Source: Armatimonadota bacterium (GTDB lineage Bacteria; Armatimonadota; UBA10988). Taken from it: DNA of 64,000 nt. The translations under genes were made by a program, and so were the position numbers. Position 1 is the stretch's first letter; each line of letters opens with the position of its first letter. Below, one piece after another: positions 48,042 through 54,249 of the stretch. Below the pieces are notes generated by a model that ran no database searches, was not told the origin of the DNA, and worked only from the letters and a program-made list of their open reading frames with translations. The stretch lies in the NCBI GenBank assembly GCA_016235455.1, contig JACRKZ010000029.1, positions 4,183 through 68,182 of the forward strand, written 5' to 3'.

Positions 48042-50339
48042 ATGTGCGCCGTCGCTCCGTTCCTGTTGCTCTGCTGCGCGGCTCTGCCCTCGGGCGCCGT
48101 GGTGCTGGTCGAAGCCGAGTCCTTCGCGGACCCCGGCGGCTGGGTGGTCGACCCGCAGTTCATGGACCAGATGGGCTCGCCCTATCTGCTGGCTCACGGG
48201 CTGGGCCGACCTGTGGCCGATGCCACGACGCAGGTCGACCTGCCAGGGCCGGGCACCTACCACGTCTGGGTGCGCAGCTACGACTGGGTGGCCAGGTGGC
48301 AGGCACCGGGCACGCCCGGACGGTTCCAGGTGCTCGTCAACGGACAGCCGCTGGAGCCGACCTTCGGCACCGTCGGCGCAGCGTGGCACTGGCAGAGCGG
48401 CGGCAGCATCACCGTCACCGACCCGCACATCCGCTTGGCGCTGCACGACCTGACCGGGTTCGAGGGCCGCTGCGACGCGATCGCCTTCAGTCCCGACGCT
48501 GACTGGCGCCCGCCGAATGCCGACCCGGCCATGGCCCAGTGGCGACGGCAGTGCCTCGGCCAGCCCGAACAGCCCGAATCAGCCGGCACCTATGACCTGG
48601 TCGTGGTCGGTGGCGGCCTGGCGGGCACCTGCGCGGCCATCGCCGCGGCGCGTGGCGGCCTGAAGACCGCGCTGATCCAGGACCGGCCCATGCTGGGCGG
48701 CAACAACAGCTCGGAGGTGCGGGTCTGGTTGCAGGGCGCGCGCAACAAGGAGCCGTGGCCGCGCATCGGCGACGTCGTCAGCGAGATGGAGCCCAGCCGG
48801 CGCGCGCACTATGGGCCGACCAACACCGCCGATCTGTACGAGGACGACAAGAAGCTGGCCGTGGCCGCCGCCGAGCCGAACCTGCGCCTCGTGTTGGACC
48901 ATCGCGCCAACGCCGTGGTCATGGCCGGCCGGCGCATCGCCGCCGTCGTGGCTCAGGACACACACAGCGGCCGACGGCTGCGCTTCGACGCGCGGCTGGT
49001 CGCCGACTGCACCGGCGACGGCGCGGTGGGCGCGCTGGCCGGTGCCGACCTGGACATGTCGCCCGCGGGGCGCATGGGTCCGTGCAACCTGTGGAACGTT
49101 AAGGACCGTGGCACGCCGCAGGACTTCCCCAGATGCCCGTGGGCGCTGGACCTGAGCGACAAGCCGTTCCCCGGTCGCAACAAGGATAGACCCGATCCCG
49201 ACCAACTCGGTGGCTGGTACTGGGAGAGCGGGTTCTCGCGCCATCCCATCGACGAGATGGAGTACATTCGCGACTGGAACTTCCGGGCCATGTATGGCGC
49301 CTGGGACGCGCTGCGCAACGTGGACAAGGTGCTGCCCAACCACGCGCTCAACTGGTCGGCGCACATCCTGGGCAAGCGCGAGTCGCGACGGTTGATGGGC
49401 GATGTCGTGCTGACCGTGGAAGAGATCAGAGCCGGCCGGCAGTACCCCGACGGCTGCGTGCCGACGGGCTGGTCCATCGACCTGCACTACCCCGACGAGC
49501 GCTACCAGAAGGGCTTCGAGGGCGACGAGTTCATCGCTCGGGCCAGCCACGGCACCTACCCCATGCCGTTCTGGATCCCCTACCGCTGCCTCTACTCGCG
49601 GAATGTGGACAATCTGTTCATGGCCGGCCGCGACATCTCGGTCACGCATGAGGCGCTGGGACCCGTGCGCGTCATGCGCACCGGCGGCTGCATGGGCGAG
49701 GTGGTCGGCCTCGCCGCCACGCTGTGTCGTGAGAAGGGCATCGACCCGCGCGCGGTGTGGGCAGAGCAGTGGCCGGCCATGCAAGCCAAGCTCAAACAGG
49801 GCGCGGGCAAGAACCCCGGCGCCAACCCCGAGTACGACAACCAGGGCGAAGGTCGCACCGTCAGACGCCCGTCGCCGCCGCCACCGGGGCTCGTACCGCC
49901 AGCATGGCTGGCCCAGGCCGGCGCCAACCTGGCGCGCGCGGCGACCTTGACGGTGTCGGGCAGCCGTGAAGGCAGCTCGCCGGCGCTGCTCAACGACGGC
50001 CGGCTCAACATCGCCGACAATGGCGGCCGCTGGCTGAGCGACGGCAAGCTGCCGCTGTGGGTGGAGCTGACCTGGCCGGAGCCCCAGAAGCTCGGTGCGG
50101 CCCGCATCGTCTCGGGCTATCTGGCCGACGGCGCCGTCACCGACCCGCTCGGCGACTTCCGCCTCCAATGGCACGACGGCACGGACTGGCATGACATCGC
50201 CGACAGCGTGACCACCGGCAACACCGATATCGGCTGGGCGATGGTCTTCGCGCCCGTGACCACAACGCGGCTGCGACTGCTGATCACCGGCACGAAGACC
50301 GACACAGCGCGCGTGTGGGAGCTCGAGGTGTACGGCTAG
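48042..50339 (+). CDS. FAD-dependent oxidoreductase family protein (PF12831-like) with N-terminal beta-sandwich and C-terminal F5/8 type C domain, secreted
   Basis: Signal peptide MCAVAPFLLLCCAALPSGA. Rossmann motif YDLVVVGGGLAGTCAAIAAARGG. C-terminal discoidin-like ...ARVWELEVYG. The ORF's 5' extension from 47619 was rejected. Confidence 0.75.
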   Translation: MCAVAPFLLLCCAALPSGAVVLVEAESFADPGGWVVDPQFMDQMGSPYLLAHGLGRPVADATTQVDLPGPGTYHVWVRSYDWVARWQAPGTPGRFQVLVNGQPLEPTFGTVGAAWHWQSGGSITVTDPHIRLALHDLTGFEGRCDAIAFSPDADWRPPNADPAMAQWRRQCLGQPEQPESAGTYDLVVVGGGLAGTCAAIAAARGGLKTALIQDRPMLGGNNSSEVRVWLQGARNKEPWPRIGDVVSEMEPSRRAHYGPTNTADLYEDDKKLAVAAAEPNLRLVLDHRANAVVMAGRRIAAVVAQDTHSGRRLRFDARLVADCTGDGAVGALAGADLDMSPAGRMGPCNLWNVKDRGTPQDFPRCPWALDLSDKPFPGRNKDRPDPDQLGGWYWESGFSRHPIDEMEYIRDWNFRAMYGAWDALRNVDKVLPNHALNWSAHILGKRESRRLMGDVVLTVEEIRAGRQYPDGCVPTGWSIDLHYPDERYQKGFEGDEFIARASHGTYPMPFWIPYRCLYSRNVDNLFMAGRDISVTHEALGPVRVMRTGGCMGEVVGLAATLCREKGIDPRAVWAEQWPAMQAKLKQGAGKNPGANPEYDNQGEGRTVRRPSPPPPGLVPPAWLAQAGANLARAATLTVSGSREGSSPALLNDGRLNIADNGGRWLSDGKLPLWVELTWPEPQKLGAARIVSGYLADGAVTDPLGDFRLQWHDGTDWHDIADSVTTGNTDIGWAMVFAPVTTTRLRLLITGTKTDTARVWELEVYG

Positions 50340-50854
50340 CCCGGCAGCGAGACGCGGCCGATCCGCTGTAGCTCGGCCAACATGGCGTCCATCTTGGCCA
50401 GCAGCGGGGTCAGGTCCGTGCGCGGCTCCATGTCGCTGCCCATGGGTGGGATGTCGGGCCGGTCGAGCGCCATGGCGCAGAGCGCCGGGCCGAAGGACAT
50501 GACCAGCGCGCCCACCGCCTTGCCCACGTTGGTCTTGGCGACGATGTCGGCGTACCCCACGCTGGCGCAGGTCGAGATGAAGTACAGGGCGTCCCAGAAG
50601 GTGTTGACCTTGTTATTCACCGGCTTCTCGGCCGCCATGAAGACCAGCGACCCGCCGATGAGCATGACCGCCAGCGACTCCAGCGGATTGGCCCGCGCCC
50701 GCTCGATGAAGCGCTTCTCCAGCGCGTCGCGCCCCCGTAGCCAACCCATCACCGTCTCGACCGGGTCGATGACGCACGACGGCACCACTTCGGCTTGCAC
50801 AGCCATCGAAGTCTCCCTGGCCCCGGCTGGGGCGACCGCGGCGGGCCGCCCCAA
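50336..50854 (-). CDS. 2-TM ion channel family protein (KcsA-like pore, non-canonical filter SVGYAD)
   Basis: TM1 LESLAVMLIGGSLVFMAA, pore helix with filter FWDALYFISTCASVGYADI, TM2 VGKAVGALVMSFGPALCAMAL. Start uncertain: the listed start is TTG, and in-frame ATGs lie at 50806 and 50749. Confidence 0.55.
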   Translation of the reverse strand: MGRPAAVAPAGARETSMAVQAEVVPSCVIDPVETVMGWLRGRDALEKRFIERARANPLESLAVMLIGGSLVFMAAEKPVNNKVNTFWDALYFISTCASVGYADIVAKTNVGKAVGALVMSFGPALCAMALDRPDIPPMGSDMEPRTDLTPLLAKMDAMLAELQRIGRVSLPG

Positions 50855-53578: not shown

Positions 53579-54249
53579 GGCCGACACCTTCCGTCGGGTG
53601 ACGTTGCACCGTCGGAGTCAGCGTTCGGCGGCAGGCGCAAGTTCCCTTCGCGTTCGCGAGTGGCGATGATCTCGAGCGTCTTGCGGTTGATCGGCTCGGG
53701 CGGCAAGGTGTCGGCCGCCGGCAGGTCCAGGTGCAGCGCCTGCGCGCCACGCAGCGCCAGCCAGCTCCGGTCCTCCTCGCCCAGCTCCGCTGCCGCCGCT
53801 CGAGCCAGCTCAGCGGGGGCGGCCAGCAGCACGTGCGCGTACTGCTGGGCAGCGGCGCTGCGCACACAGCATTCAAGCTTGTCCTGAAGCAACTCGGCCA
53901 GAGCGCCGGCCGCCATGCCCCGCGGGCCAAGACAGCAAGCCGCGGCGAGCACGGCGGCTCGGTTGGCAGGCACCTGGAAGACAAACTCGACCCGCGCGTC
54001 GAGCCTGACGCAGTCCCGGCTGAACAGCGCATCGTCGCCACGGCGCCCAACAGTGAGGGACACCGGCTGGAGCGAGATCCAGAGGTGATTGTGCACCAGC
54101 GGTAGCACCACGGCCGTGCCGTCTAGGAAACAGCAGGCCCCGCCGCGACCGGTACGGACGAGCGCTCGGTCTGGTCCGACCTTGACGAGCACCCTCCGCC
54201 AGGCCACGACCACCACGCCAGCCAACAACGCCAAGCCGACCACCAGCAT
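53575..54249 (-). CDS. short SPFH-domain protein (truncated paralog of the flotillin N-terminal region)
   Basis: ALVRTGRGGACCFLDGTAVVLPLVHNHLWISLQPVSLTV... parallels the flotillin's AFVRTGRGGACCVLDGGRMVIPILHNIVYISLETMKLDV.... Confidence 0.55.
   Translation of the reverse strand: MLVVGLALLAGVVVVAWRRVLVKVGPDRALVRTGRGGACCFLDGTAVVLPLVHNHLWISLQPVSLTVGRRGDDALFSRDCVRLDARVEFVFQVPANRAAVLAAACCLGPRGMAAGALAELLQDKLECCVRSAAAQQYAHVLLAAPAELARAAAAELGEEDRSWLALRGAQALHLDLPAADTLPPEPINRKTLEIIATREREGNLRLPPNADSDGATSPDGRCRP

Follow-up and report, generated by a model that had tools for sequence, protein, structure and literature searches.

Does a bacterial flotillin operon carry an ion channel of its own? The question is raised by a stretch of 64,000 nucleotides (nt) from the contig JACRKZ010000029.1 of an Armatimonadota bacterium (assembly GCA_016235455.1; the whole stretch is referred to below as the window), in which four co-oriented open reading frames (ORFs) of the minus strand (50336-54249) encode, in the order of transcription, a short SPFH protein, an NfeD/YqiJ-like membrane protein, a flotillin and a protein resembling the K+ channel KcsA. 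A first-pass annotation of these genes had suggested a flotillin-channel functional unit and had drawn attention to the selectivity filter of the channel-like protein, TCASVGYAD, in which the second glycine of the canonical motif is replaced by alanine. Comparison with related loci shows that the genes for the YqiJ-like protein, the flotillin and the channel, with or without a PspA-like gene in between, make up a conserved module in four phyla. The set in the window is one member of this widespread, undescribed module, the yqiJK pair and the K+-channel fold each being well known; a literature search of incomplete coverage turned up no report of a K+-channel gene associated with a flotillin/NfeD operon. 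The explanation to which we incline, without strong conviction, is that a yqiJ-yqiK-type flotillin operon has acquired, at its downstream end, a dedicated gene for a small K+-channel-like protein, and that this pore is a partner of the flotillin-YqiJ scaffold.

The YqiJ-flotillin-channel module is conserved in four phyla

Genes of the channel family were located in one genome per species, which gave 49 loci from Chloroflexota (the majority), Planctomycetota, Myxococcota and Armatimonadota, and, with a broader alignment, in metagenomes, which gave 80 further loci without taxonomy, many of them short-flanked. Loci counted as informative if their upstream flank measured 1.2 kb or more (44 from genomes and 35 from metagenomes, 79 altogether). 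A flotillin gene is present upstream of the channel gene on the same strand in 40 of the 44 genome loci and 32 of the 35 metagenome loci, i.e., in 72/79, at a distance of 0-1.9 kb. Two of the seven exceptions still adjoin a flotillin gene (flotillin and YqiJ genes are convergent and immediately downstream of the channel gene in L062; the order is channel, YqiJ, flotillin in L124), so that the adjacency is kept in 74 of the 79 loci (~94%). If the channels are clustered at 90% identity, 63 of the 68 clusters are linked to flotillin. Overlaps of start and stop codons are frequent in the related loci; note that YqiJ and PspA-like genes, for which tblastn was used, are detected less sensitively than flotillin.

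Distant subfamilies have the linkage as well. The channel gene of L055 (filter TSLSVGYAN) overlaps the flotillin gene by 4 nt, and in L059 (TCLSVGYDQ) the channel gene is preceded by a gene for a protein of 252 amino acids (aa) without Pfam match, YqiJ-like according to tblastn, and then a flotillin gene. Furthermore, the reverse search, starting from YqiJ homologues, recovered the YqiJ-flotillin-channel triad in both complete genomes examined, which belong to cultured Myxococcota: Polyangium aurulentum (CP079217.1, L145; 173-aa channel with the filter TCLSVGYDD, 12-nt junction) and Pendulispora rubella (CP089983.1, L146; 108-aa channel with TSLSVGYAN, 4-nt overlaps). The conservation of gene order, which the first-pass annotation had named as a check, is thus pronounced and is seen also from the YqiJ side, and the proposed unit is well founded as a genetic inference, except that the short SPFH paralog is not part of it.

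Given that a genome carries one flotillin gene or a few of them, adjacency by chance should be expected in well under 1% of the loci (a rough reckoning, not a computed value). A chance neighbourhood of functionally unrelated genes in the window genome, for which nothing speaks beyond a 63-nt spacer with a hairpin in front of the channel gene, is refuted by the adjacency kept in 74 of 79 loci and by the two triads recovered from the YqiJ side, and we give it practically no weight. An anti-phage or abortive-infection module, with the channel as a depolarising effector restrained by the SPFH scaffold, has no more than general plausibility, as membrane-disrupting effectors are common in defence systems. 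PADLOC models match none of the four proteins, searches of phage and plasmid collections with the channel protein yielded no homologue, the neighbouring genes are housekeeping or metabolic ones that differ between lineages, and the module sits on the chromosome and is stably maintained in different phyla, which makes a defence function very improbable. Defence and chance would together take up only a sliver of the probability.

Most of the Chloroflexota-type loci possess a PspA-like ORF of ~150-210 aa between the flotillin and channel genes, which often overlaps the start of the latter. These ORFs reach 29-31 bits against PspA_IM30, under the cutoff of 33.9 bits; besides, a full PspA/IM30 gene (73 bits) is located 3' of the channel gene in some loci. 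Genes of the PspA type were seen in L013 (7259-7870, 8336-9034), L006, L018, L081, L086 and L066, whereas no PspA homologue is encoded in the 64 kb of the window. A link between PspA, flotillin and NfeD is known from Bacillus subtilis and Acidobacteriota (PMC8581546, PMC9239133), and the PspA-like neighbours shift the likely role of the module toward membrane stress.

Two further neighbours were noted in related loci. Some Chloroflexota loci contain a gene for a response-regulator-like protein of ~270 aa just 5' of yqiJ (L013, 3458-4267; L006, 3222-4034), which scores 24 bits on Response_reg, below the cutoff, and may regulate the operon. In the deltaproteobacterial locus L047, where flotillin is missing, the channel gene is followed by a gene for a 632-aa membrane protein (8350-10248), the start of which (…DSLWFALTRFLDGG…) resembles another channel or transporter.

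The channel-like protein and its filter

The protein encoded by the last gene, identical to a 156-aa NCBI protein from an Armatimonadetes metagenome-assembled genome (MAG), matches Ion_trans_2 with 38 bits (cutoff 22.5 bits). Its AlphaFold2 (AF2) model, calculated for the monomer (pLDDT 79), has a cytoplasmic helix (residues 15-39), a first transmembrane helix (TM1, 41-60), a pore helix (70-79), a second transmembrane helix (TM2, 93-114) and a C-terminal helix (133-152). The order is that of an N-terminal helix, TM1, pore helix, filter, a short TM2 with a Gly-Pro hinge, a linker and a conserved amphipathic C-terminal helix. KcsA and the pore module of KvLm were the best Foldseek matches (E only ~1e-2, probability 1.0, root-mean-square deviation (rmsd) ~3 Å over ~80 residues), and the family profile found KvLm (7.5e-8), KvAP and KcsA in the PDB. 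The reading of this gene product as a KcsA-like pore protein with two transmembrane helices is therefore borne out by domain match, family profile and predicted structure, the last of which has two membrane helices and a pore loop as in KcsA. No curated family specific to the channel clade exists in Pfam or NCBIfam, both of which give generic matches only. The NCBI name 'two pore domain potassium channel family protein' was rejected, as alignment and AF2 model have a single pore domain.

In the profile alignment, TCASVGYAD stands opposite TATTVGYGD of KvLm and KvAP, with a pore helix one residue shorter, and G106 is aligned with the conserved inner-helix glycine of these two channels. TM2 ends ~10 residues past the glycine hinge, which makes a bundle-crossing gate of the KcsA type unlikely in the model.

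The family is large: an exhaustive profile search yielded 1424 cluster representatives at E ≤ 1e-3, 208 of them at E ≤ 1e-10. Among the close homologues (n=19), T79, C80, A81, S82, V83, G84 and Y85 are invariant, position 86 is A, S or T, and D or N follows; the termini are conserved as well, with an NPLES motif in the N-terminal helix and a C-terminal L-D-A-I-L-x-E-L helix. A census of 166 filters (the 150 best profile matches plus the close homologues) gave T-x-x-S-V-G-Y-x-[D/N] as the trait of the family. The second glycine of GYG is usually replaced by A or S and sometimes by D, H, T or C; the commonest endings are GYAD (37/166), GYSD (27/166) and GYAN (25/166), followed by the canonical GYGD (9/166), GYSN (7/166) and GYDD (6/166), the remainder being endings with H, C or T and other variants. 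A few members have more degenerate motifs (SVGS, SGGS, SVGC). In fact, the alanine of the window filter, encoded just as the first-pass annotation had it, is not a one-off substitution but lies at a position that varies throughout the family.

The rest of the pore is much less free to vary. S82, V83, G84 and G95 (the latter in TM2) are invariant in 112 full-length members, conservation reaches 90% or more at T79, Y85, D72, A73, T92, G106 and P107, and position 86 is variable. The K+ channel signature T-x-G-[YF]-G does not fit the S-V-G-Y-A of the window filter. In KcsA numbering we take the hydroxyl of Ser82 to be site S4 and Val83 and Gly84 to be carbonyl positions. The family thus appears to keep the S4 hydroxyl, the Val/Gly carbonyls, the aromatic pair, the Asp/Asn after the filter, a T-x-x-G-K motif and the hinge, and to drop the second glycine. 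The invariant and nearly invariant columns indicate purifying selection on the pore rather than decay of the gene. Alignment and model together point to a pore under constraint, relaxed at its outer mouth and probably lacking a KcsA-like bundle-crossing gate; selectivity and gating are predicted to differ from those of KcsA, probably, because the outermost filter position is relaxed and the inner helix is short.

A filter of this kind could also belong to a channel-derived protein that no longer conducts and serves as a tetrameric membrane plug, as an ion or lipid sensor, or as a nucleator of flotillin microdomains. The loss of the second glycine (to A, S, D, H, T or C) and the still more degenerate motifs of a few members would fit, as would the loss of function that mutations of this glycine cause in canonical channels (PMC3283738). 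A precedent is provided by the flotillin-associated rhodopsins, divergent membrane proteins tied to flotillin in which the retinal pocket is apparently lost (PMC10308929). Nevertheless, S82, V83, G84, the aromatic pair in front of the filter, the D/N, T-x-x-G-K and the hinge are invariant or nearly so, as would be expected if ion coordination and gating matter, and a non-conducting protein seems rather improbable to us. Filter variants can also render two-pore-domain (K2P) channels Na+-permeable (PMC11513965).

Gene boundaries, partner proteins and expression signals

All four genes described by the first-pass annotation are present, and three of them carry the claimed domains directly in Pfam. 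The genome has a GC content of ~70%, and ATG codons with a Shine-Dalgarno-like sequence 5' were chosen as gene starts instead of the starts of the longest ORFs; the resulting product lengths are given in Table 1. The junctions of 4-15 nt reported before turned out to be an artefact of the longest-ORF starts. The short SPFH ORF, with its ATG at 54249 preceded by GGGAGGG, overlaps the YqiJ-like gene (ATG at 53578) by 4 nt (ATGA), 30 nt separate the yqiJ stop codon from the flotillin ATG (52774, GGAGAG 5'), and 63 nt separate the flotillin stop codon from the channel ATG (50806, GGGAGA 5'). All four boundaries recur in the genes called independently for L143, a contig that is 99.9% identical and stems from a different read set, and the NCBI proteins from the Armatimonadetes MAG agree with the revised boundaries of the channel and YqiJ-like genes.

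Table 1. Genes of the flotillin-channel locus and features within it (positions in the window)
Feature	Position	Strand	Basis
Short SPFH ORF, 224 aa	53575..54249	-	Band_7 near cutoff; similarity to adjoining flotillin
YqiJ/DUF1449-family NfeD-like membrane protein, 257 aa	52805..53578	-	Orthologues, predicted fold
Asp/His-rich low-complexity loop of YqiJ-like protein	53333..53476	-	Residues ~35-82, DADHDADHDMDHDVDHDVD...
YqiK-type flotillin, 634 aa	50870..52774	-	Band_7, E. coli YqiK similarity
GC-rich hairpin in flotillin-channel spacer	50819..50861	-	Folding vs shuffles
K+-channel-like protein, 156 aa	50336..50806	-	Ion_trans_2, AF2 model, KcsA-like matches
Selectivity-filter segment TCASVGYAD, residues 79-87	50546..50572	-	Sequence; profile alignment to solved channels

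The flotillin matches Band_7 with 61.6 bits (cutoff 23.6 bits) and has 33% identity to E. coli YqiK over 461 aa (E 2e-63), the alignment beginning at residue 27. Its N-terminus has two hydrophobic segments, a hairpin, ahead of Band_7, with positive residues after the second one, and its C-terminal part is a long Glu/Ala/Gln-rich coiled-coil region that aligns with YqiK up to residue 471. PF15975 (Flot) has no match on the window flotillin and is present on the flotillins beside the channel genes of L055, L059, L145 and L146. Orthology to FloT was rejected (NCBIfam NF058507, 66 bits against a cutoff of 700 bits). In L028 (5265-5709), from a Chloroflexia MAG, the flotillin frame seems to be split by a frameshift, possibly a sequencing error or a pseudogene.

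The YqiJ-like gene is located directly upstream of the flotillin gene, in the same order as in the related loci. Its product has no NfeD or YqiJ match of its own in Pfam (YqiJ_N, PF21001, at E ≤ 0.01). However, orthologues (L013, L004, L005) reach 25.7-29 bits on YqiJ_N (cutoff 23 bits), NCBI labels the protein as DUF1449 family protein with PF21001 on most of 120 listed homologues, and it aligns to E. coli YqiJ (E 8e-8). In the AF2 model, likewise of the monomer (pLDDT 81), an N-terminal membrane helix is followed by a disordered loop, three more helices and a C-terminal oligonucleotide/oligosaccharide-binding (OB) fold, a five-stranded barrel (strands 174-231, pLDDT >90). The best Foldseek matches of this barrel are YbbJ in the QmcA-YbbJ SPFH-NfeD complex (8z5g, E 2e-4) and the soluble domain of NfeD (3cp0); it also matches 1510-C, a partner encoded in a stomatin operon (3wwv; target-normalised TM-score 0.80, rmsd 1.5 Å). 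The second gene product is thus, on the basis of orthologues and predicted fold, a YqiJ/DUF1449 membrane protein with an NfeD-type OB fold, in agreement with its first description as NfeD/YqiJ-like. Together with the flotillin it constitutes the classical yqiJ/yqiK-type NfeD-SPFH pair that had been proposed, a kind of pair assigned to the SPFH2 or 'reggie-like' group by Hinderhofer et al. 2009 (PMC2636767).

The disordered loop of the YqiJ-like protein (pLDDT <55) is rich in Asp and His, and its Asp columns are nearly invariant in 45 homologues. Such a repeat loop of 40-60 residues (DxDHD...) is present in all YqiJ partners examined (those of the window, L004, L012, L013, L104, L145 (Polyangium) and L146 (Pendulispora)), whereas E. 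coli YqiJ (209 aa, aligned to window residues 57-233) has no comparable long Asp/His-rich run. Given a cytoplasmic OB fold and three membrane helices, the loop should be located in the cytoplasm, where it could bind metals or other cations.

The short SPFH ORF is a different case. It reaches 23.2 bits on Band_7 (E 7.9e-5), just below the Pfam cutoff of 23.6 bits, and has 48% identity over 130 aa (E 7e-40) to residues 37-165 of the adjoining flotillin. The copy extends from the membrane anchor through ~130 aa at the start of the SPFH domain and continues into an unrelated Ala/Arg-rich tail of ~90 aa; the coiled-coil region on which SPFH rings depend is missing. The in-frame GC content at third codon positions is 0.81, compared to 0.92-0.94 in the flotillin and channel genes. 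The ORF is absent upstream of yqiJ in the relatives L141 and L142; in L141, with ~84% DNA identity to the window, homology starts just 16 nt 5' of the yqiJ start, and all frames upstream contain stop codons. An unrelated gene occupies this position in an Armatimonadota relative other than L141. The protein cluster of the ORF lists a Logan assembly as its only source, not NCBI, and a homologue search returned only the ORF itself, with the 8000 word-sharing candidates saturated (probably by low-complexity matches), so that this result is no evidence of absence.

The sole comparable copy among the fetched loci (L104, 880-1509; 209 aa, 66% identical to the flotillin of that locus) is located between yqiJ and the flotillin gene and arose independently; truncated SPFH copies arise recurrently in these flotillin operons. 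The short ORF is best read as a recent, lineage-specific partial tandem duplicate of the flotillin N-terminus, of uncertain function, which may well be expressed, given its strong ribosome-binding site and its translational coupling to yqiJ. A conserved third subunit, forming an HflK/HflC-like pair with the flotillin, was considered and rejected, as among the fetched loci such an ORF occurs only in this lineage and, independently, in L104. The paralog of the first-pass annotation hence exists and is derived from an SPFH protein, but it is no conserved member of the unit.

The 63-nt spacer in front of the channel gene can form a hairpin with an 18-pair core; the enclosing stretch of 86 nt folds with -47.6 kcal/mol (z -2.85 against shuffles). 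No U-tract follows, and the ribosome-binding site of the channel gene is located directly 3'. A hairpin of different sequence is present at the same place in the relative L051 (~1420-1460, z -2.55). An Rfam search of 50200-54500 at E ≤ 1 gave no match, and no terminator-like site was called at the hairpin; the three terminator-like sites found are within coding regions, about as many as in shuffled sequence. A scan for sigma-70 promoters returned no sites, a result that carries no information in the case of an Armatimonadota genome. The hairpin would most likely serve to stabilise or attenuate the transcript and so allow for high flotillin and low channel expression; it neither proves nor excludes a separate promoter of the channel gene.

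The conserved operon structure would equally fit a channel that is co-regulated with the scaffold and not physically coupled to it: both would belong to one membrane-stress or osmotic regulon, with the channel as a further effector, such as a valve for K+ release or uptake. PspA-like genes in the same operon in many lineages, channel family members that stand alone and a spacer hairpin suggestive of separately tuned expression all agree with this. Yet the very tight adjacency across four phyla, with 4-nt overlaps with the flotillin or PspA-like gene, is more typical of the subunits of one complex, and the short cytoplasmic N- and C-terminal helices of the channel are strongly conserved without an obvious catalytic role, which suggests docking surfaces. 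Co-regulation without contact is in our opinion an unlikely explanation, albeit one to be taken seriously.

As for the surroundings in the window, a homocitrate-synthase-like gene on the same strand ends 75 nt upstream of the four genes. At the other end, the stop codon of the channel gene overlaps that of a convergent plus-strand gene (FAD-oxidoreductase/DUF7402, a 906-aa ORF) in the palindromic CTAG at 50336-50339; the cluster therefore ends there, and no intergenic space is left for a terminator. The ORFs at 46842-47519 and 56237-56983 begin with prepilin-type N-terminal signals (…FTLIELLVV… and …FTLVEAVMV…), and the orthologue of the former in L050 has N_methyl and SBP_bac_10 (DUF1559) domains. 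Armatimonadota and Planctomycetota typically have such genes, which bear no relation to the flotillin and the channel.

A possible flotillin-channel partnership and its relation to known systems

If the channel is indeed a partner of the flotillin-YqiJ scaffold, the following picture can be drawn. Flotillin would use its N-terminal hairpin as a membrane anchor and expose its SPFH and coiled-coil parts to the cytoplasm, where, like other SPFH proteins, it would build a ring or dome against the membrane; YqiJ would bind this assembly via its OB fold. The channel-like protein would form the predicted tetrameric cation pore and, as a client or partner of the scaffold, would be recruited, corralled or gated by it, with its conserved cytoplasmic N-terminal (NPLES) and C-terminal helices as the probable candidates for docking. 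In this way the module, as part of a membrane-stress response, would couple cation flux to the state of the membrane, and with it the membrane potential or the turgor. In the window genome, the spacer hairpin would probably lower the expression of the channel relative to that of flotillin.

HflK/C encloses FtsH, and stomatin, MEC-2 and podocin modulate ion channels. SPFH proteins build cages abutting the membrane (PMC12624060; cf. the QmcA-YbbJ complex, PDB 8z5g, among the Foldseek matches of the YqiJ barrel). A more specific proposal, which we offer tentatively and with considerable doubt, is that a flotillin dome lined by YqiJ encloses channel tetramers, that the cytoplasmic poly-Asp/His loop of YqiJ concentrates or buffers cations where they enter the pore, and that the state of the microdomain gates their flux. 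If true, this would be the first prokaryotic complex of SPFH proteins with an ion channel and a possible ancestral model for regulation by stomatin, MEC-2 and podocin.

Several points weigh against a dedicated partnership. Flotillin is missing in ~6% of the informative loci and beside the family members of L002, L003, L043, L047, L053, L057 and L061, as well as in L058, which has the only canonical GYGD member with examined context; the channel can thus occur by itself. E. coli possesses yqiJK without a channel gene, hence the scaffold does not need the channel. The 63-nt spacer and its strong hairpin leave room for partial termination or separate regulation. Moreover, since gene neighbours have a common evolutionary history, conservation alone cannot separate physical coupling from co-regulation. 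Finally, because mutations of the second glycine are reported to deprive canonical channels of K+ selectivity or function (PMC3283738), the window protein may not be K+-selective, or may be non-conducting altogether.

The role of bacterial flotillins is debated and few specific clients are known; the channel would be a genetically defined candidate for one. The question of flotillin as a 'microdomain scaffold' would thereby be turned into a testable three-protein system, available in complete genomes of cultured Myxococcota. The channel family itself is a natural experiment, in which the inner filter, the aromatic cuff and the hinge were kept, the second glycine was set free and the inner helix was shortened, and it bears on how much of the K+ signature conduction and selectivity require. 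If flotillin and channel interact, they would represent a simple bacterial model for the regulation of eukaryotic channels by SPFH proteins, and through the recurrent PspA-like genes ion flux would be linked with the machinery of membrane stress and repair.

Among the known systems, E. coli yqiJ-yqiK has the pair and its order in common with the window, but no channel gene follows yqiK and YqiJ has no long Asp/His run, whereas the window possesses an additional partial flotillin copy. The pspA-ydjGHI and yuaF-floT operons of B. subtilis likewise combine genes for an NfeD-like and an SPFH/flotillin protein in one operon, and their PspA/IM30 link is mirrored by the PspA-like genes of most Chloroflexota-type loci; in contrast to the window, which has no PspA, they contain no ion-channel gene.

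With KcsA, the KvLm pore module, KvAP and the viral Kcv, the window channel has in common the fold of two helices, pore helix and filter. Compared to KcsA, KvLm and KvAP, it keeps the aromatic pair preceding and the Asp following the filter, a T-x-x-G-K/R motif and the glycine hinge; it differs in the lost second filter glycine, in the exchange of T-T for A-S, in a pore helix one residue shorter and in a shorter TM2. The conserved NPLES motif and C-terminal helix are features of its own family, unlike KcsA-type channels. The second glycine is also missing in the protozoan 'GYX' homologues of K+ channels, predicted to be non-selective or non-functional (PMC3283738); these are eukaryotic multi-domain proteins from another context, with no linkage to SPFH genes.

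The pairs stomatin-ASIC, MEC-2 with MEC-4/10, podocin-TRPC6 and HflK/C-FtsH have in common with it the concept of an SPFH scaffold that acts on one specific oligomeric membrane protein, by modulating or by enclosing it. They were found biochemically or genetically and not as operons, whereas the link in the window is one of gene neighbourhood. To our knowledge, none of these partnerships involves a bacterial protein with the two-helix K+-channel fold. The closest conceptual precedent are the flotillin-associated rhodopsins (PMC10308929) of marine SAR11 and other hosts: although these are seven-helix rhodopsins and not pore-loop channels, they too are a divergent clade of ion-transport proteins with altered key residues and a conserved gene association with flotillin.

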